NCBI GenBank assembly: GCA_044238145.1
Contig: JBIIDT010000001.1
Span: 15,172 to 79,171, forward strand
Direction of reading: 5' to 3'
From: Pirellulales bacterium
Lineage (GTDB): Bacteria; Planctomycetota; Planctomycetia; Pirellulales; UBA1268
Length of the DNA: 64,000 bases
Positions within the stretch are counted from its first letter, which is position 1. The number at the start of each line of letters is the position of its first letter. This document shows positions 4,006 to 12,852 of the stretch, in pieces. The position numbers were made by a program, and so were the translations under genes. The notes under the pieces were generated by a model. It made no database searches. It was not told where the DNA came from and saw only the letters and a list, made by a program, of their open reading frames with translations.

Positions 4006-5676
4006 TCAGGTCGTGTGCTCGGCGGCGGGCCGTCCGAGCCAGGGGCGGCCGGAGGTCTCGGCGGCGGGCAGGTCTCGCGTGTCGCTGGCCGGCGGCGGCG
4101 GGTAGACGCTCGGGCCGGTCGGGGCGACCGTCGGCTCCGGGGCGGGCGCGGCGGCAGCCGACGGCTCCTTGGCGGCCGGTGCGGGGATCGCCTCGACCTT
4201 CTGCAGGGACGGCGCGGCGGCCGACTCGACGGCCGGCTTCTCGGCGCGGTGGGCCCCGGCCTGTTCGGGATCGACGTGCTTGAGGTCCGAACCACCCCAG
4301 CCCGCGGCCGCCGGCGGCGCGTCGGCCGGCTTGTCGCTGCTGAACGTCTTGCGGGCGGCGGCCTCGGTGGGTGCCAGTGCGGGTGCGGCCGACGCGGCCG
4401 CGGGCCGGGCGGCGGCGGCGGGCGTCGCCGGGGCGGCCGGCAGCGGATTGCCGCACGGGTCGAGCGGCACCTTCGTGACGACGACCCGCGGCGAGCGGAC
4501 CGTGTAGGTGTGGGGCGTCTTCTTCTCGACGACCCGCGGCACCTGCATGCTCCGCTCCTCCGTGACGTACTTCATGACCTGCACCTGCACCGGCTCGACC
4601 TTTTCCTCGGTGACGTACCGGCAGACCTGGAAGGCCACCTGCCGGACCTGCTCCTCCGGAACCATCTTGCAGACGGTCACCGGCACCTTGTTGTCGACCC
4701 GCTCCACGACCTTGCGGACGGTCTGCACCGGCACCTGGCGGACGGCTGTCTCGGCGACCATCCGTGTGGTCTGCACCGGGACCTGCGTGACCACCTGCTC
4801 GTCGACGTAGCGCATGGTCTGCACCGGCACCTTCTGGGTGACGACCCGGTTGACCATCGTCGTCTCCGCCACCTGCACCGGCGTGTAGGTCGGCTGGTAG
4901 ACGCGGTTGACCTGGTTGACGACCGTGCCCGGCGTCATCGTCCAGACGTAGCCGCCTCGCTGCCAGACGGCGAGGCCCGTGTACGGGTCGACGGCCCAGC
5001 CGCCGGGCGCCCAGCCGAGGCCGGTGCTGCCGGGGGTGACCACGGGCGTGACGGTGTCGACGGCCTGGCTGCCGACCGAGTAGGCCGTCCGCATCTGCGT
5101 GACCGGCTCCTGGACGGTGTAGGCCTGCTCCCGCTCGCTCGTCTCGTAGACCGGCTTGCGGACGGTCTGCACCTGCTGCTGCATCACCGTCTCGGTGACG
5201 GGCCGCATCACGGTGTACTGCTCGTCGCGGGTCGCCGTCTCGACCACGTCGCGGGTCACGTCGTAGCTGCGGTCCTCGATCACCGTCTCGTAGACGGGCT
5301 TCATGACGGTGTACCGCTCGTCACGGGTCTGCGTCTCCCACACCGGCCGCTGCACGGTGTAGCGACGCTCCTGCGTCTGCGTCTCCCACACCGGCTTCTG
5401 CACCGTGTAGGTCTTGGTGTCGTAGACGGTCTCGTAGGTGACCCGCTCGACGGTCACCTGCCGGTCGTCGTAGACCGTCTGGTAGTCGAGGCGGTAGGTC
5501 TGCACGGGGACGGCCGCGGCCGCGGGCGCGGCGGCACAGCCGCACTCGGCGCGGGCGGAAGGCAGTGCGGTGGCCTGGAAGGGCAGCGACTGCGGGGCGA
5601 CGACGAGAAGGGCGGCGGCGAACGCCTGGAACCGCCGCAGAGTGCTCGAGCGCGAAAGAACGCCGAACCGGGTCAT
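4006..5676 (-). CDS. Secreted YTV-repeat protein with Ala/Pro-rich C-terminal tail
   Basis: 556 aa with an N-terminal signal-like segment. There are dozens of degenerate repeats such as YTVQKPVWETQTQERR / YTVQRPVWETQTRDER / YTVMKPVYETV / YTVMRPVTETV / PVQT.R.V. The tail is A/P-rich. Confidence 0.8.
   Translation of the reverse strand: MTRFGVLSRSSTLRRFQAFAAALLVVAPQSLPFQATALPSARAECGCAAAPAAAAVPVQTYRLDYQTVYDDRQVTVERVTYETVYDTKTYTVQKPVWETQTQERRYTVQRPVWETQTRDERYTVMKPVYETVIEDRSYDVTRDVVETATRDEQYTVMRPVTETVMQQQVQTVRKPVYETSEREQAYTVQEPVTQMRTAYSVGSQAVDTVTPVVTPGSTGLGWAPGGWAVDPYTGLAVWQRGGYVWTMTPGTVVNQVNRVYQPTYTPVQVAETTMVNRVVTQKVPVQTMRYVDEQVVTQVPVQTTRMVAETAVRQVPVQTVRKVVERVDNKVPVTVCKMVPEEQVRQVAFQVCRYVTEEKVEPVQVQVMKYVTEERSMQVPRVVEKKTPHTYTVRSPRVVVTKVPLDPCGNPLPAAPATPAAAARPAAASAAPALAPTEAAARKTFSSDKPADAPPAAAGWGGSDLKHVDPEQAGAHRAEKPAVESAAAPSLQKVEAIPAPAAKEPSAAAAPAPEPTVAPTGPSVYPPPPASDTRDLPAAETSGRPWLGRPAAEHTT
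4494..5499 (-). repeat. Degenerate in-frame tandem repeats (YTV / PV.ET / VPVQT units) inside the CDS
   Basis: Periodic recurrence of acggtgta / gtctcccacaccgg-type units. Two near-identical adjacent units lie at about 5320-5410. Boundaries are approximate. Confidence 0.6.
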
Positions 5677-5957: not shown

Positions 5958-6476
5958 TCAGAACATCTTCTCGAGGAGCCGGCGGCTCGTGCCGTCGAGC
6001 GCGTCGATGTCGGGGATCAGGTAGCGGATGCCGTGCGTGTCGGTGACGAAGGCCACGCCGTCGGCCTGCCGGACGACGTCGTCCACGTGGCCGACCTTGA
6101 AGCGGTGCAGGCCGCGGTCGGTGGCCACCGTCCACTCGGCCGGCTCGCCGTCGGACACCGCCGCGATCCGCTCGATCACCGGGAGGAACTCCCGCTCGGC
6201 GAGCTCCCGCTCCACGAGCGACCGCAGCGGATCGGCGACCTCGGCCAACGCCGCGATCCAGGCGAGTTCGCCGCCGTCGGCGTCGACGATCGCCACCGGG
6301 CCGCGGGGCGCCGACACGGGGAAGGCCCGCAGCACGTCGACGTCCTCGTGCCGCACGCCCACCGCCGAGACGAAGGCCAGTCGGCCATGGGCGTGCCGCT
6401 CGAGCACCCAGCCCTTGGGCGATCTCCCCTGCGTCGCTTGCTCGGCGCGATCGTGATCGTTCATCCGGTGCTCCAC
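5958..6476 (-). CDS. DUF1854-like protein (cyanophycin-metabolism-associated family)
   Basis: 172 aa; alternative start at 6464. Begins 5 nt after the stop of the upstream ABC gene on the same strand. Sequence LRAFPVSAP..PVAIVDADGGELAWI..LPVIERI..WTVATDRG..F..FVTDTHGIRYLIPD resembles DUF1854 from memory. The gene context (ABC transporter plus cphA) fits. Confidence 0.65.
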   Translation of the reverse strand: MEHRMNDHDRAEQATQGRSPKGWVLERHAHGRLAFVSAVGVRHEDVDVLRAFPVSAPRGPVAIVDADGGELAWIAALAEVADPLRSLVERELAEREFLPVIERIAAVSDGEPAEWTVATDRGLHRFKVGHVDDVVRQADGVAFVTDTHGIRYLIPDIDALDGTSRRLLEKMF

Positions 6477-6481
6477 GGGCG

Positions 6482-8788
6482 TTAGTCGGCGGCCGCCGCG
6501 GTCTCCTCCGCGGCCTTCAGCTGGGCGCGGTACAGCCGGGCATAGGCCCCGTCAGCGGCGAGCAGGTCGTCGTGCGTGCCGATCTCGACGATCCGGCCGG
6601 CCTCGAGCACGACGAGTCGGTCGGCCCGGCGGAGCGTCGAGAGGCGGTGGGCGATGGCGATCGTCGTGCGGCCCACGACCAGCCGGTCGATGGCCGCCTG
6701 GATGATCGCCTCGGTCTCCACGTCGACGGCCGACGTGGCCTCGTCGAGCACGAGGATCCGCGGGTCGACGAGGAGCGCCCGGGCGATCGACAGCCGCTGC
6801 CGCTCGCCGCCGGAGAGGGATCCGCCCCGCTCGCCCACCCGCGTGTCGTAGGCCAGAGGCTGGGCGAGGATGAAGTCGTGGGCCCCGGCGGCCCGGGCGG
6901 CCTCCACGATCCGCTCGCGGGCGGCGTCGGGACGGCCGTAGGCGATGTTCTCGGCGATCGTGCCGAAAAACAGGAACGGCTCCTGCAGCACGCAGCCGAG
7001 GTTGCGGTGGTAGTCGGCGATGGCGAGGTCGCGGAGATCGACGCCGTCGACCTTGATCGAGCCGCTGGAGGGGTCGTAGAAGCGGCACACCAGGTTGGCG
7101 AGCGTCGACTTGCCCGAGCCGCTGGTGCCCACGAGGCCGATCATCTCGCCGGGCTCGATCGTGAGGTTCACGCCATGCAGCACCTCGCGGGCGCCGTAGC
7201 GGAAGTGCACGTCGGCGATCTCGATCCGACCGCGCACGCGGCCCGGCCGCATCGGCTCGGCGGCTTCGGCCACCGTCGGCTTGCAGTCGAGGATCTCGAA
7301 GATCCGCTGGGCGCTGGCGGCCGCCCGCTGCGTGGCCGGCACCATGCGGATCATCGACTCCACGCGGCCGTAGAACCGGGCGATGTAGGCGAGGAAGGCC
7401 GTCAGGCCGCCGACGGTGACCGAGCCGCCGAATACGAGCCACGCCCCCGCCGCCCAGACGACGAGCAGCCCGACCTCGCTGAACAGCGCGAACAGCGGAC
7501 CGCAGAACGACCAGATCACGTTGACGCGGTCGTTGGCGTCGAGCACGCGGTCGTTGGCCGCGACGAAGCGGTCGATCTCCCGCGACTCCTGGGCGAAGGC
7601 CTTGACCACGCGGATGCCGGGGATCGTGTCGGCCAGCACGCTCGTCATGTCGCCCCAGGCGACGCTGGCCCGGGAGAAGCCCTGGCGAAGCCGCTCGCGG
7701 ACGGCGTACACGAGCCAGACGACGAATGGGAAGGGCACGAGCGTCAGGGCCGCGAGCGTGGGGTTGAGCCACAGGAGCACCGCCGCCGTGAGGGCCAGGA
7801 GCATGACGTTCGAGGCGAACTCGATGAGGTTCACCGACAGGAAGATGTTGAGCTTGTCGGTGTCGCTGCCCACCCGGGCGATCAGGTCGCCGGTCCGCTT
7901 CGTCTGGAAGAAGTCGAGCGACAGCGACTGGATGTGGGCGTAGGTCCTGGTCCGCAGGCCGGCCGCGATCCGTTCGCTGACCCAGGCGAGCGTCCAGGTC
8001 TGGGCCCAGGAGAGCAGCCAGGCCGCGACGGCCGCGAGCGTCAGGCCGCCGAGATACCACCACACGGTGGAGAACGGGATCGCGGCGCCGTTCTGGCGCG
8101 GGATGAGCACCTGGTCGACGAGCGGCATCGTCAGGTAGGGCGGCACGAGGGCCGCGGTGGTGCTCGCCAGCGAGAGCACGCCGCCGAGGATCGCCATCCC
8201 GGCGTGCGGCCGGGCGAACGACAGCACCCGGGCGAGCGCCCGCCACGATGCCGCCCCCGCCGGCTGCGGGAAGTCGTCGTCGCCCCGCGCGGAGGCGGCC
8301 GCGGGTCGCCGTTCCTCGGCGGGCTGCTCCGCGGCCGGCGGCTTGCGCCCCGCGCGGCCGCCGCGGCCGGCGGTCGCGGCCTGGGCCCGCAGTGCCGCCG
8401 ACTGGGAGTCGAAGGCGTCCTCGAGGGCGTGGGCGCCCTTCGCCCGGGCCGACGTGAACAGCCAGCGGGCCACCACGCGGCCGTGCCGCGCCAATTCGAT
8501 GCGGCCGACGGCCGCCCGCATCCGCACGTCCACATGGGTGTCGGCATCGAGCGGCCACGACCGCGGCCCGCCCTCCGCGCCGCCGTCGGCCGACGCCGGC
8601 TCGTCGGCGATCACCCGGCTGTCGGTGAGCACGATCCATCCATCGGTGAAGCGCAGGCGGCCGTCGAGATCGAACCGGCAGGCGGCGATGACCCGCTCCG
8701 TCGGGGCGAGTTCGACCCCCGACTTCCAGGGCAGGGACGGGGAGTCGCCCGAACGGGCGGCGGCGGTGCTGGCTGCGCTGGCGGTCAT
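6482..8788 (-). CDS. ABC transporter, fused permease/ATPase (exporter type) with a roughly 190-aa N-terminal extension
   Basis: ORF 6482..8869; start taken at MTASAAST (8788). Six-TM exporter domain. Walker A GTSGSGKST, signature LSGGERQR and Walker B ILVLDEATSAVD are present. The N-terminal region (RFDLDGRLRFTDGWIVLTDSRVIADE..GRIELARHGRVVARWLF) looks like a bacterial PH-like module. Confidence 0.85.
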   Translation of the reverse strand: MTASAASTAAARSGDSPSLPWKSGVELAPTERVIAACRFDLDGRLRFTDGWIVLTDSRVIADEPASADGGAEGGPRSWPLDADTHVDVRMRAAVGRIELARHGRVVARWLFTSARAKGAHALEDAFDSQSAALRAQAATAGRGGRAGRKPPAAEQPAEERRPAAASARGDDDFPQPAGAASWRALARVLSFARPHAGMAILGGVLSLASTTAALVPPYLTMPLVDQVLIPRQNGAAIPFSTVWWYLGGLTLAAVAAWLLSWAQTWTLAWVSERIAAGLRTRTYAHIQSLSLDFFQTKRTGDLIARVGSDTDKLNIFLSVNLIEFASNVMLLALTAAVLLWLNPTLAALTLVPFPFVVWLVYAVRERLRQGFSRASVAWGDMTSVLADTIPGIRVVKAFAQESREIDRFVAANDRVLDANDRVNVIWSFCGPLFALFSEVGLLVVWAAGAWLVFGGSVTVGGLTAFLAYIARFYGRVESMIRMVPATQRAAASAQRIFEILDCKPTVAEAAEPMRPGRVRGRIEIADVHFRYGAREVLHGVNLTIEPGEMIGLVGTSGSGKSTLANLVCRFYDPSSGSIKVDGVDLRDLAIADYHRNLGCVLQEPFLFFGTIAENIAYGRPDAARERIVEAARAAGAHDFILAQPLAYDTRVGERGGSLSGGERQRLSIARALLVDPRILVLDEATSAVDVETEAIIQAAIDRLVVGRTTIAIAHRLSTLRRADRLVVLEAGRIVEIGTHDDLLAADGAYARLYRAQLKAAEETAAAAD

Positions 8789-9696
8789 CGGCGGGGGGTC
8801 GCGGGGCTGGATTCCGGGTGGCGACCGGGGTTTTGGCCGGTTGGGCGGCCCAGCCCGGCTGTTTCGCAAGAAATTTGATTCGCCCTCCGAACATACCTAA
8901 GTTAGCCCCCTGTAGCCGACCCCGACCTTTTGCCGGCCGCGGTCGATCCCGCCTTGCAAATTTTGCAGCCCGAAAACCCTCCCGGCGACGTTCAGGCACG
9001 CCCCTTGTCCTCCCATCCATGACGACGCCCAGCGGCCGAGCCCCGCGGGCGGGTTTTTCGCCTCCGCGAACGGGCTTCCTTGTTTCGGCCTGCGACCGGC
9101 ACGCGACGTGCTTGTCTGTGAAGGTCATGGAAAAAGTTTCCGGGCCGCCCCGCGGCAACGTAGACTTGTTCCACCGGGTCGATCGGCCGGCCGCGAGTGA
9201 TCGTGGCCGGACGGCGGCGCGGGGCGTCGGCGACGCGACGAGCGACCGCCGGCGGCGTTGGAATCTTGGTGCCGCGAGGAACGGTCATCGCAAGCGAACG
9301 CGCGTCCGTGTGGCGTGCGGCGATGCCATCCGGCCTCGCGGTGTAGGAACCCATCCCTCCCATGGCCACCTCGGCCGGTCGGTTGTCGGTAACAGGCTTC
9401 TCCTCCCTCCAGTCGTCCCCAGGTCCGATCGCCGGCAAGAGCCTCGCGGTCGGCATCTCTCCCGCGGCCCCGGACTGCCAGCCGCCGCCCTGACGTCCTC
9501 CCCCCACGTCGGGTTCGTACGGATGCCTGCCCCGGCAGGCAGGACTGCGTCGGCGACGCGCCGCCGCAGCCCCGTTGTGAACCGTGCGACCTTCCTGCCA
9601 GCACCCACCGTCGGGTCGTCCCGCGGCTGCAGGAGGCGCACAAGACCAGACCACCGCACGCGTCTGCGAACGGTCTAGAGAACGCCAGATACCCCA

Positions 9697-12600
9697 ATGG
9701 AGATCACGTCCCTCAAGGTCCTCCGCGGTCCCAACCAGTGGGCCTCGTTTCCCTGCCTCGAAGCCTGGGTCGACCTCGGCCGGCTCGAGGACTTTCCCTC
9801 CCACACGATTCCCGGCTTCAACGAGCGGATCATGGCCTGGCTGCCGACCATGATCGAGCATCGCTGCTCGATCGGCGAGCGGGGCGGGTTCTTCGAGCGG
9901 CTGCGGACGGGCACCTGGATGGGCCACGTGCTCGAGCACGTGACGCTGGAACTGCAGACCCTCGGCGGCACGCCGGTCGGCTACGGCCGCGCCCGTGAGG
10001 CCAACACGCGGGGCGTCTACAAGGTGGTGATTGAATACAAGGAGGAGGCGTTCGCGATCGAGTGCCTCCATGCCGCCCACCGGCTGATCATGGCGGCGAT
10101 CGAGGACATGCCGTTCGACGTCGCCGCCGAGGTGAAGCGGCTGCGGAAGGTGCTCCTCGACGTGCAGCTCGGCCCGAGCACGCGGTCGATCGTCGAGGCG
10201 GCCGCCGCCCGCGGCATCCCCTCCCGCCGGCTGACCGCCGGCTCACTCGTCCGCCTCGGCCAGGGGGCGAAGCAGCGGCGGATCCTCGCGGCGGAGACCG
10301 ACCAGACCGGGGCCGTCGCGGAGACCATCGCCCAGGACAAGGACCTGACCCGCGCCCTCCTCGCGGAGGCCGGCGTACCGGTGCCCGAGGGGCGGCCGGT
10401 GACCGACGCGGCGGATGCGTGGCGGGTGGCTGAGGACATCGCGGCGCCCGTGGTGGTGAAGCCGCGCTACGGGAGCCAGGGCCGCGGCGTGTCCGTGGAC
10501 CTGTCCACGGCCGCCGAGGTGGAGCAGGCCTGGGAACTGGCCCATGCCGGCGAGCGGGAGGTGATGGTCGAGCGGTTCGTCGCCGGTGGCGACTACCGCG
10601 TGCTCGTGGTGGGCGGCAAGATGGTGGCGGCCGCCCGGCGGCATCCTCCGCAGGTGACCGGCGACGGTCGGTCGACGGTGCGGCAGCTCGTCGACCTCGT
10701 CAACGAGGATCCGCGGCGGTGCGCCGACCACGCCGGCTCGCTCAGCCCGGTCGTCATCGACGAGGTGGCGGAGTCCGTGCTGGCCGACCAGGGGCTGGCT
10801 GTCGACGCCGTACCCGCGGCCGGGCAGGTGGTGCTGCTGCGGCACAACGCCAACCTCAGCACCGGTGGCACGGCCGAGGACGTCACCGACGTCGTCCATC
10901 CAGAGGTCGCCGCCCGGGCCGTCGAGGCGGCCCGGATCATCGGCCTCGACGTCGCCGGCATCGACATCGTGACCTCCGACATCGCCCAGCCGCTCGAGGC
11001 CACCCGCGGCGTGGTGATCGAGGTCAACGCCGCCCCGGGCCTGCGGATGCACCTCGAGCCGGCGGTCGGCACCCCGCGGAACGTGGGCGCCGCGATCGTG
11101 GACACGCTGTTCGCCCCGGGAGACGACGGCCGGATCCCGACCGCGGCCGTCACCGGCACCAACGGCAAGACCACGGTCGTGCGGCTCATCGCCCACCTCT
11201 CCGGCATGGGAGGCGGCACCGTCGGCATGACCTGCACCGAAGGGGTGTGGATCGGCGGCCGGCTGATCGACGCGGGCGACTGCAGCGGCCCGAAGAGCGC
11301 CCAGCGGGTGCTGGCCAACCCGGCGGTGACGACGGCGGTGCTGGAGACCGCCCGCGGCGGGATCCTCCGCGAGGGCTGCGGGTTCGACAAGTGCGACGTG
11401 GCGGTCGTGACCAACATCGCCTCCGGGGACCATCTCGGCATCAGCGAGATCGACACGCCCGAGAAGCTCGCCTGGGTGAAGGGGGCGATCGTGGCGGCGG
11501 TCCGTCCGGGAGGTGCCGCAGTCCTCAACGCCGCCGATCCGCTGGTCGTCGACATGAAGAAGTGGTGCAAGGGGCAGGTCGTGTACTTCGGCGCCGACCC
11601 CGCCAACCCCGTGATCACGGAACACCTCGCGCAGGGCGGCCTCGCGGCCACGCTGCGGGACGGCTGGATCGTGCTCTGCGACGGCCCGCGCGAGACGCGG
11701 CTGGCGCACCTCGACCGCGTGCCGCTGGTGCACCGCGGACTGGTGACCTTCCAGGTGGAGAACGTGCTCGCCAGCGCCGCTGCGGCCTGGCGGCTGGGCG
11801 TGCCGCTGGAGCTGGTGCGGCTGGGCCTGGAGAGCTTCTCCAGCGGATCGGCCGGCTCGCCGGGCCGCTTCAACCTGCTCGAACTCGACGGTGCCGCGAT
11901 CGTGGTCGACTACGGCCACAATGTGCCGTCCCTCGAGCAGATCTGCATGGCGATGAAGAAGCTGCCGCACCCGCGGCGGATCGCGGTCTACTCCGCGGCG
12001 GGCGACCGGCGGGACGAGGACCTTCTCGCGCAGGGTCGTCTGCTCGGCCAGACCTTCGAGCGGGTGGTGATTTACGAGGACGCCTACATCCGGGGCCGGC
12101 AGCCGGGCGACATCACCCGCCTGTTGTCCGAGGGCATTCGCGCGGGCATGCCAGCCGACCGTCCGGTGCAGATCGACGCCGGAGGCACGTGGGCTGAGGC
12201 GGCGGCGCGGGTGTTGGACGCGGCCGCGGCCGGGGACCTCGTCCTCCTCCAGCCCGACACGATCGAGCAGACGATTCCCTGGCTCGCCGACCGGTACGGC
12301 AGCCGACTCCGCGACCTGACCTTCGACGAGATCGCGGGTCCGGCGGCCCACGGCCTCGGCGAGCGGGCTCCCCGGCCGGGCGAGCCGGTGGCCGTGAAGC
12401 CGGGCCGGCTCGGCCTGGGTGTCGCGGCCGTCCGCGCGATCGCCGCCGGGGAGACGATCATCCGCACCTGGGGCGAGCAGGCCGATCGGCGTTCACCACA
12501 CTCGATGCAGGTCGACGTCAACACGCACATCGTGCCGGACGGCGTGACGGTGCTCCTGAACCACTCCTGCGATCCGAACTGCGGCGTCATCATCCGCTCG

Positions 12601-12852
12601 GGCGTGAAGCAGATCGAGCTCCGCGCCCTGCGGCCGATCGCCGCCGGCGAGGAGATCACGGTCGACTACGACACGTTCGAGTACGAGGTGGCCCACCTCG
12701 GCGGGCCCTGCCGCTGCGGTGCCACCACGTGCCGGGGCCGCGTGGCCGGCTACCGGCATCTCGCGGCCGACGTGAAGGCCCGCTACGGCGACCTGATCGC
12801 GGAGTACCTCCGCCTGCTCGACTCCGAGATCACGCTGCCCGCCGGCGTGTGA
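9697..12852 (+). CDS. cphA: Cyanophycin synthetase (CphA1-type) fused to a C-terminal SET-domain methyltransferase
   Basis: 1051 aa. The CphA N-domain starts MEITSLKVLRGPNQW. ATP-grasp region: VVVKP..GRGV..ERFV.G.DYRVLVVGGK, NLSTGG. Mur-ligase-like domain: VTGTNGKTT, DYGHN. A SET domain follows at the C-terminus (listed as a separate feature). Confidence 0.9.
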   Translation: MEITSLKVLRGPNQWASFPCLEAWVDLGRLEDFPSHTIPGFNERIMAWLPTMIEHRCSIGERGGFFERLRTGTWMGHVLEHVTLELQTLGGTPVGYGRAREANTRGVYKVVIEYKEEAFAIECLHAAHRLIMAAIEDMPFDVAAEVKRLRKVLLDVQLGPSTRSIVEAAAARGIPSRRLTAGSLVRLGQGAKQRRILAAETDQTGAVAETIAQDKDLTRALLAEAGVPVPEGRPVTDAADAWRVAEDIAAPVVVKPRYGSQGRGVSVDLSTAAEVEQAWELAHAGEREVMVERFVAGGDYRVLVVGGKMVAAARRHPPQVTGDGRSTVRQLVDLVNEDPRRCADHAGSLSPVVIDEVAESVLADQGLAVDAVPAAGQVVLLRHNANLSTGGTAEDVTDVVHPEVAARAVEAARIIGLDVAGIDIVTSDIAQPLEATRGVVIEVNAAPGLRMHLEPAVGTPRNVGAAIVDTLFAPGDDGRIPTAAVTGTNGKTTVVRLIAHLSGMGGGTVGMTCTEGVWIGGRLIDAGDCSGPKSAQRVLANPAVTTAVLETARGGILREGCGFDKCDVAVVTNIASGDHLGISEIDTPEKLAWVKGAIVAAVRPGGAAVLNAADPLVVDMKKWCKGQVVYFGADPANPVITEHLAQGGLAATLRDGWIVLCDGPRETRLAHLDRVPLVHRGLVTFQVENVLASAAAAWRLGVPLELVRLGLESFSSGSAGSPGRFNLLELDGAAIVVDYGHNVPSLEQICMAMKKLPHPRRIAVYSAAGDRRDEDLLAQGRLLGQTFERVVIYEDAYIRGRQPGDITRLLSEGIRAGMPADRPVQIDAGGTWAEAAARVLDAAAAGDLVLLQPDTIEQTIPWLADRYGSRLRDLTFDEIAGPAAHGLGERAPRPGEPVAVKPGRLGLGVAAVRAIAAGETIIRTWGEQADRRSPHSMQVDVNTHIVPDGVTVLLNHSCDPNCGVIIRSGVKQIELRALRPIAAGEEITVDYDTFEYEVAHLGGPCRCGATTCRGRVAGYRHLAADVKARYGDLIAEYLRLLDSEITLPAGV
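12385..12849 (+). other. SET domain (AdoMet-dependent protein lysine methyltransferase fold) forming the C-terminal ~155 aa of the CphA ORF
   Basis: Motifs GLGVAAVRAIAAGETI, LLNHSCDPN (12559-12579 encodes NHSCDPN), GEEITVDYD, and a post-SET-like CRCGATTCRG. It is in frame with no intervening stop after the CphA M-domain. Confidence 0.8.

Follow-up and report, generated by a model that had tools for sequence, protein, structure and literature searches.

A planctomycete cyanophycin synthetase that continues in frame into a C-terminal SET domain

In the cyanophycin synthetase CphA1, a single chain already houses three active sites. Neither fusions of the enzyme nor Planctomycetes are mentioned in a bioinformatic survey of the genes for cyanophycin (PMC10206079). 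The solubility of the polymer is governed by its lysine content, and methylated cyanophycin has so far come from chemical treatment only (PMC8560796). In two beta-proteobacteria, genes for an ATP-binding cassette (ABC) protein and a DUF1854 protein are cofit with cphA/cphA', and export of an amino-acid polymer, not storage, was proposed for them (10.1101/072470). Among SET enzymes, BurB (172 aa) S-methylates free L-methionine; the substrate lies deep in a pocket that is sealed by the binding of S-adenosylmethionine (AdoMet) and is held for the most part through the main chain of R70, T73, V130, and M132, and BurI, BurD, and BurE are the downstream genes of its dimethylsulfoniopropionate (DMSP) pathway (PMC12542666). 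The present work concerns a stretch of 64,000 nucleotides of contig JBIIDT010000001.1 from a Pirellulales bacterium (GCA_044238145.1), called here the window, in which a single gene joins a complete CphA1 to a SET domain. This cphA-SET fusion is real, widespread, and uncharacterised.

The gene is one open reading frame (ORF) with an ATG start, 1051 aa, and no internal stop, and it was divided as follows (dN/dS, ratio of nonsynonymous to synonymous substitution rates; AF2, AlphaFold2):

9697..12852, + strand: CphA1-SET fusion ORF, 1051 aa, stop codon included (Pfam and NCBIfam; identical protein on >50 contigs)
9697..10176, + strand: CphA N domain, aa 1-160, with HxxEH as H77-V-L-E80-H81 (PF18921; aligned to 7wac and 7lg5)
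10177..11136, + strand: CphA G domain (ATP-grasp), aa ~161-480 (Pfam; alignment to 7wac/7lg5; module boundaries from PMC9427784)
11137..12297, + strand: CphA M domain (Mur-ligase-like), aa ~481-867, Mcore plus mobile Mlid (PF08245, PF02875; boundaries from PMC9427784)
12298..12387, + strand: variable linker, aa 868-897 (mean aa identity 0.52, dN/dS 0.48)
12388..12741, + strand: SET core and predicted post-SET zinc cluster, aa 898-1015 (PF00856; AF2; Foldseek)
12742..12849, + strand: C-terminal two-helix extension, aa 1016-1051, with G1018, Y1030-G, and A1035-x-Y-L-R (models; dN/dS 0.21)

The synthetase is complete within residues 1-867, and the alignment to 7wac stops at aa 867. The NCBIfam equivalog for cyanophycin synthetase, TIGR02068, matched aa 3-861 with 1066.1 bits (cut-off 850), and NF010623, also a cyanophycin synthetase model, gave 1193.9 bits (cut-off 877). 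Pfam recognised the Cyanophycin_syn N domain (PF18921, 2.4e-39) together with RimK/ATP-grasp, Mur_ligase_M (PF08245), and Mur_ligase_C (PF02875). The HxxEH motif of the N domain is its primer-generating site and is present in primer-independent enzymes (PMC9262961); the G-omega insert of the G domain covers aa ~316-395 and contains NANLSTGG, and the M domain's P-loop is GTNGKTT at 487-493. On all the sequence criteria applied, the CphA part belongs to CphA1; it is ~50% identical to the Arg-using cyanobacterial enzymes and is predicted to be a synthetase with all three active sites (N, G, and M) that polymerises cyanophycin.

The remaining part begins with the conserved end of CphA (RYGSRLR..FDE.AG) and goes on as a Pro/Gly/Ala-rich tether that includes GLGERAPRPGEP at aa 886-897. 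In the full-length AF2 model (mean predicted local distance difference test score, pLDDT, 87.4; predicted template modelling score 0.77), aa 881-890, between M and SET, had a pLDDT of 52, the lowest of any 10-residue block outside the C-terminal end, which is consistent with a flexible tether of ~30 aa that joins the mobile Mlid module to SET. The segment 12385..12852 of the window corresponds to aa 897-1051 and the stop codon. A match to the SET family PF00856 covers aa 906-991; it scored 50.3 bits when the whole protein was scanned (gathering score 22.4) and 55.7 bits, with an E of 7.4e-15, when the tail was scanned by itself (E range 4e-13 to 7e-15). The SET core carries GLGVAAVRAIAAGETI at aa 906-921, NHSCDPN at 955-961, EEITVDY at 985-991, and CRCGATTC at 1005-1012, and its landmarks are G906, H935-S-M-Q938, H944, N955-H-S-C958-D-P-N-C962, E985-E-I-T-V-D-Y991, F994-E995, and C1005-x-C1007-x4-C1012. 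Two helices, at 1024-1033 and 1036-1043, were predicted in the C-terminal extension by both the tail and the full-length models; such an extension is common to BurB-like bacterial SET proteins, and the BurB alignment reaches that region. The original prediction of a complete CphA1 running in frame into a SET domain thus stands: all the motifs that it quoted are present, the PF00856 score lies above gathering and TIGR02068 reaches 1066 bits, and the matches of both the SET and the CphA profiles are significant. There was no second cphA or SET gene within the 64-kb window.

The fusion is found far beyond the window. Its exact 1051-aa sequence was located on 51 contigs, in 60 index blocks drawn from JGI, ENA, and NCBI assemblies, with neighbours that are the same every time, and colinear fusions of 1050-1052 aa occur in independent genomes. 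A metagenome-assembled genome (MAG) of Planctomycetia (L002, GCA_026400965.1) encodes a 1051-aa orthologue that is 76% identical and aligns without gaps, junction included. Scanning of GTDB species genomes gave four further full-length fusions (L003-L006), three of them labelled as planctomycete MAGs and one lying on a short contig in a MAG labelled Chitinophagaceae. The latter, L006, is the 6.4-kb contig CAZPEM010000163.1 of a MAG that bears the label uncultured Chitinophagaceae, and it encodes a full-length CphA-SET protein whose CphA part is 77% identical to that of the window; for its place in a Bacteroidota bin, a binning error is more likely than lateral transfer. A full-length protein search recovered ~75 clusters of ~1050-aa proteins with both the CphA domains and PF00856, at 65-100% identity, from planctomycete MAGs and metagenomes, some of them holding tens to hundreds of member sequences. 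A scan of metagenome contigs with the SET alignment showed no further cphA-linked locus among the matches listed, which were mostly generic SET patterns. One metagenomic lineage, L083, has instead an 896-aa cphA followed, 177 nt downstream, by a separate 153-aa SET gene, a counterpart of the fusion in split form. The relatives thus offer both arrangements that the original prediction had pointed to, the same fusion and adjacent split genes.

An artefact of assembly, frameshift, or gene calling might be thought of in view of the two truly separate genes of L083 and of the many short database entries of the fusion that are contig-end fragments. This explanation was rejected, with next to no probability left to it: the identical ORF was found on >50 independently assembled contigs, ~75 diverged fusions are full-length, the junction in L002 is ungapped, and the third-position GC runs on as in coding sequence, the codon-position GC of the whole ORF being 0.74/0.49/0.94, as in real genes of the same genome. 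The fusion was not described in any paper found by full-text literature searches on cyanophycin synthetase and SET, on CphA1 and methyltransferase, and on cyanophycin and planctomycetes, in agreement with the earlier claim that it is undescribed. Database names cover one half only, either "cyanophycin synthetase" or "SET domain-containing protein-lysine N-methyltransferase", and the Pfam architecture is displayed.

To judge the state of the SET domain, 78 fused sequences spanning identities down to ~41% were aligned. Twenty-one columns were invariant in 78/78: G906, A911, G926, R932, Q938, H944, H956, C958, P960, C962, E985, D990, Y991, F994, E995, C1005, C1007, C1012, R1013, G1018, and A1035. 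Among these are two residues of NHSC (His and Cys), the Asp and Tyr of ELxFDY, and each of the four ligands of the post-SET zinc site (C958, C1005, C1007, and C1012), a site that is predicted from these invariant cysteines of NHSC and CxCxxxxC. The catalytic Tyr and the NHSC motif, whose degeneration in orthologues would have told against the earlier claim, are therefore conserved in their key residues. Among the positions that vary, 935 is His in 59/78 and Tyr in 13/78, and N955 is kept in 59/78. The dN/dS values, calculated by the Nei-Gojobori method over six close orthologues, were 0.16 for the N domain, 0.18 for the G domain, 0.13 for the M domain, 0.48 for the linker, 0.31 for the SET core, and 0.21 for the C-terminal helices. 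The AF2 model of the tail was a confident SET fold (mean pLDDT 92.8), and Foldseek placed BurB and MLL1 on top (E 6.5e-9, probability 1.00), with a probability of 1.00 also to SETD2, NSD1, and vSET. The invariant columns, a dN/dS well below 1, and the confident fold point to a functional AdoMet-dependent methyltransferase, not a relic.

The link between cphA and SET is old. Distant planctomycete fusions, of 978 aa in L007, 954 aa in L008, and 980 aa in L164/P0097, show ~46-48% identity to the window protein over the CphA part and 41-43% over SET. In these fused paralogues the G-omega module is gone (aa ~316-395 of the window protein, including NANLSTGG) and the ATP-grasp P-loop is degenerate, KPRYGSQGRG having become RPKYVVAQEA; SET is retained, as are HxxEH and the motifs of the M domain. 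Since these proteins keep the M motifs and SET despite a decayed G domain, SET always goes with an intact M domain. Directly behind the fused gene, L007, L164, and the P0094 contig carry another cphA, which is unfused and has its G domain intact; the coordinates of these genes, as cphA'-SET and then cphA, are

L007: 2583-5519 and 5652-8192
L164: 8001-10943 and 11282-13828
L008: 2613-5477 (fused gene only)

The second, unfused cphA of these distant pairs bears an N-domain deletion that removes the HxxEH site. By analogy with the beta-proteobacterial cphA/cphA', the complementary defects of the tandem genes suggest an obligate hetero-oligomer.

The domain has also been lost. About 43 clusters of CphA proteins of 886-925 aa, 76-83% identical to the CphA part of the window protein, carry no SET, examples being L165:6001-8733 and L167:6001-8739 (proteins P0337 and P0357). 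In the SET-less loci L165-L168 the gene order is the same on both sides, a short Pro/Ala-rich tail replaces SET, and tblastn found no SET remnant. Fitch parsimony on a tree of the CphA part gave the SET-linked state as ancestral, with ~5 losses, 1 of them probably a truncated entry; the tree is a neighbour-joining tree without support values, and the number of losses is approximate. The fusion is ancient in Planctomycetota and under purifying selection, and SET is, on these comparisons, an accessory, dispensable module, a point on which the original prediction is to be corrected.

These losses bear on an alternative in which SET has no catalytic part, serving as a binding or oligomerisation module that holds the cationic polymer or stabilises the tetramer, or else decaying as a relic. 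It would fit the repeated loss of SET with the rest of the locus unchanged, the faster evolution of the domain (0.31 as against 0.13-0.18 for the CphA domains), and the fact that BurB and CphA1 are both tetramers, for the C-terminal helices could mediate assembly. Invariance of the AdoMet-site, catalytic-Tyr, and zinc-ligand positions in all 78 sequences would be unexpected for a structural domain or a relic, and a dN/dS well below 1 speaks against it as well, so that we consider this alternative very unlikely.

The nearest free-standing relatives of the SET domain (36-45% identity) have no cphA within 5 kb, nor does P0029, a free-standing relative at 49% identity, have one nearby. Their hosts are Solirubrobacterales, Actinomycetes, Streptomyces, Erythrobacter, and Nannocystis, and their neighbours, examined for DMSP-type or cyanophycin settings, are heterogeneous (M14 peptidase, major facilitator superfamily transporter, P450, an ABC protein with a cyclic nucleotide monophosphate domain, and YchF); these contexts give no clue to the substrate of SET. 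Three giant proteins, P0091 (1449 aa), P0092 (1479 aa), and P0093 (1415 aa), contain 5-9 tandem SET-like stretches that are related to the fused SET family, with E down to 1e-68, an unusual architecture.

By sequence, the closest solved protein to the fused SET domain is BurB (9L4T; E 1.5e-14, 57 bits), followed by SET1, MLL, and ASH1L at 2e-11 to 1e-9. The BurB strand H72-T-x-Q75...H81 aligns with H935-S-M-Q938...H944 of the window protein, where histone lysine methyltransferases have Y-x-F, and the AdoMet contacts R133 and H138 of BurB are not conserved, being aligned with L1001 and R1006. Because of this and of an identity of 28-33%, the specificity of BurB is not transferable. The fused family has SET as a free-standing protein only in the L083 lineage, where it still adjoins cphA. 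As the free-standing and genomic-context features of BurB/MSMT are not those of the fused domain and the identity is too low, we set the latter apart from BurB/MSMT orthologues; it is placed in the SET superfamily and not filed, on its sequence, as a histone-type lysine methyltransferase. The original prediction had taken SET domains to be AdoMet-dependent protein lysine methyltransferases. The SET identity was borne out, and "protein lysine" proved too narrow a term, BurB being an S-methyltransferase of free methionine. The label "protein lysine methyltransferase" is thus not safe for the fused domain, and since its closest solved relative methylates free methionine, a small molecule or a pendant amino acid of the polymer would be at least as likely a substrate as a protein lysine.

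This kinship brings in a second alternative, in which SET would methylate a free amino acid in the manner of BurB (Met to S-methylmethionine, or Lys, Orn, or Arg at nitrogen) and the M domain would then incorporate the cationic monomer. For it speak that no solved protein is closer in sequence than BurB, which is also the joint best match by fold, and that the strand that matches the conserved H935-S-M-Q938 and H944 is used by the sealed pocket of BurB for free Met. The M domains of CphA, moreover, accept a range of cationic amino acids (Lys, Orn, citrulline, and canavanine), and enzymes that supply a monomer are often found fused to those that use it. We nevertheless judge it unlikely: the identity to BurB is low, with R133 and H138 not conserved, and the score of the CphA part is that of an ordinary CphA1 equivalog, with ~50% identity to Arg-using enzymes. 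SET-less sisters that are 81-83% identical in the CphA part suggest, moreover, that M was not re-specialised for an exotic monomer, and tethering would be of little gain for a diffusible product.

The histone-type relatives raise a third possibility, a conventional protein lysine methyltransferase with a regulatory role, acting on CphA itself (a Lys of the M or G active site or of the tetramer interface) or on a partner such as the ABC/DUF1854 proteins encoded nearby. No peptide-binding i-SET or flanking reader module is present, and the closest relative is a small-molecule enzyme; SET is linked specifically to an intact M domain, even where the G domain has decayed, and no conserved target lysine unique to SET-bearing CphAs was identified, though no systematic search was made. 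In its favour can be counted that such domains carry the annotation protein-lysine N-methyltransferase in Pfam and NCBI, that MLL/SET1/ASH1L have the same fold and post-SET zinc site, that position 935 is a Tyr like that of histone enzymes in 13/78 orthologues, and that repeated loss fits a dispensable add-on. Taking both sides into account, a regulatory role is improbable.

Two genes that are transcribed divergently from cphA-SET may bear on the fate of the polymer:

6482..8869, - strand: "cyanophycin metabolism-associated ABC transporter", with permease and ATPase in one fused protein, divergent from cphA-SET (NF052233 equivalog, 1019 bits vs 880)
5958..6476, - strand: "cyanophycin metabolism-associated DUF1854 family protein", encoded downstream of the transporter (NF052234, 151.7 bits vs 150, borderline)

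The ABC gene is found in the same position in L002-L008, L083, L164, and L165-L168, and PF08909 (DUF1854) in the same position in L083, L164, and L165-L168; the ABC/DUF1854 arrangement is kept in every related locus examined.

The reading that we prefer, while holding it tentatively and as somewhat short of probable, is that SET methylates the basic residue attached by the adjoining M domain, giving a modified polymer that is possibly exported. SET would be an active AdoMet-dependent methyltransferase whose substrate is made by the M domain next door, namely, the pendant Lys or Arg that is joined by M to the beta-carboxyl of the last Asp added. In cyanophycin this residue is attached through its alpha-amine and its alpha-carboxylate stays free, so that it resembles a free amino acid more than a protein lysine, in keeping with the kinship to BurB and its closed amino-acid pocket. 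With methyl groups on the side chain, hydrogen bonding would be weaker and the charge would be fixed or altered; the resulting cyanophycin-like polymer would be more soluble and resistant to cyanophycinase, properties that would suit an exported product, and it might be handed to the adjacent ABC/DUF1854 system. Considering that syntenic sister lineages have no SET, methylation would be a modification of the product and not a need of polymerisation. The specific version in which the product is a naturally N-methylated cyanophycin (at the epsilon-amine of Lys or the guanidinium of Arg, during M addition) that ABC/DUF1854 exports to the envelope is a possibility that we regard as rather doubtful.

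Several points weigh against the methylation of the pendant residue. To our knowledge, arginine is not a substrate of SET enzymes, and canonical cyanophycin is rich in it; the proposal therefore requires a Lys-containing polymer or a new specificity, which is its main weakness. The substrate is inferred solely from domain adjacency and distant homology. The identity to BurB is ~28-33% and Foldseek scores BurB and the histone enzymes almost equally, and a BurB-like pocket chemistry is not established for the fused domain. SET was lost ~3-5 times with synteny kept, and dispensability is also compatible with a regulatory role. Finally, the export role of ABC/DUF1854 is itself a proposal.

Other elements of the locus were also inspected. 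On the 3' side of cphA-SET, on the opposite strand, lie genes for MlaD, an ABC ATPase, and MlaE, which are regarded as unrelated neighbours. Just downstream of the DUF1854 gene and on the same strand, the window encodes a 556-aa protein (4006-5676, - strand) with a signal-like hydrophobic segment at the N-terminus, many tandem repeats of the "YTV..PV.ET" type, and an Ala/Pro-rich tail; it had no Pfam, NCBIfam, or PDB match. L165 and L167 have unannotated ORFs of 549-565 aa at the equivalent position, and the protein may be part of the ABC/DUF1854 operon.

The region directly upstream of the fusion gene is conserved as DNA:

9255..9696, + strand: conserved non-coding leader of ~440 nt, directly 5' of cphA-SET (DNA conservation, no codon periodicity)
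L002:2745-3192; L003:1935-2402; L004:1960-2399; L005:1945-2399; L165/L167:5540-6000: equivalents of the leader in related loci

The identity of the leader is 70-80%, with long invariant blocks, across loci whose synonymous sites are largely saturated. Substitutions in it fell on the three codon positions as 156/148/152 (cphA, 51/36/188), and its GC is flat over the codon positions. A 286-aa ORF called by gene callers at 8818..9678 was rejected as coding, with flat codon-position GC and no excess of third-position substitutions. RNAalifold folded seven leader sequences into 119 pairs, of which 31 have changes on both sides; compensatory changes occur in several hairpins, for example, GCCTGCC/GGCAGGC replaced by GTCCGCC/GGCGGAC. 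Rfam, which covers riboswitches and known RNAs, had no match in the 830-bp region upstream of cphA. The leader also precedes SET-less cphA, so that it goes with cphA and not with SET, and it is a candidate structured RNA, riboswitch-like or regulatory.

If the methylation of the polymer proves true, CphA1 would have a fourth, AdoMet-dependent activity, and the product of these abundant freshwater planctomycetes would not be plain cyanophycin. It would be the first case of a SET enzyme with a non-ribosomal amino-acid polymer as its substrate, and of a cyanophycin that is modified by an enzyme; SET chemistry would extend beyond protein lysines and free methionine, and a natural methylating synthetase would be directly useful for a soluble or protease-resistant polymer. 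Together with ABC/DUF1854, it would bear on the question of an exported envelope polymer versus a nitrogen store for non-cyanobacterial cphA clusters. The SET-less orthologues, 81-83% identical in the CphA part, provide a natural control for a functional comparison.

When the locus is compared with the described systems, the nearest is CphA1 itself, represented by SuCphA1 of Synechocystis (7LG5) and TeCphA1 of Thermosynechococcus (7WAC). Residues 1-867 are colinear with them at 698-705 bits and share the N domain with HxxEH, the G domain with Gcore, Glid, and G-omega, and the M domain with the GTNGKT P-loop and Mlid. The solved enzymes stop 10-40 residues past Mlid, whereas the window protein continues for 184 residues (linker, SET, post-SET, and two helices) that are absent from described CphA1. 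BurB/MSMT (PDB 9L4T, 9L4V), the SET-type methionine S-methyltransferases of DMSP synthesis in bacteria, shares with the tail a minimal architecture of SET, post-SET, and C-terminal extension in ~150-170 aa and the motifs H-[ST]-x-Q...H, HSC, DY, and CxCGxxxC; it differs in being a free-standing tetramer from a DMSP/malleicyprol cluster, whereas the window SET is fused to CphA and has no BurI-, BurD-, or BurE-type gene among the identified neighbours. The SET and post-SET lysine methyltransferases (MLL1, SET1, ASH1L, NSD, and vSET) have in common with it the fold, the NHSC and ELxFDY pseudoknot, and the post-SET zinc site. Unlike them, the window protein has no pre-SET/AWS, i-SET, or partner-binding modules, and its domain is bacterial and fused to a polymer synthetase; the lysine-channel Tyr of their "YxF" strand is His in the window protein (Tyr in 13/78 relatives), while Y991 is present. 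The beta-proteobacterial clusters of cphA/cphA' with ABC and DUF1854 genes (10.1101/072470) resemble the locus in having the same accessory genes next to cphA, and among the more distant loci of planctomycetes, L007, L164, and the P0094 contig match them further in having two tandem cphA genes with complementary defects; a SET domain is not reported in those clusters, whereas the window holds a single, fully intact cphA that carries one.

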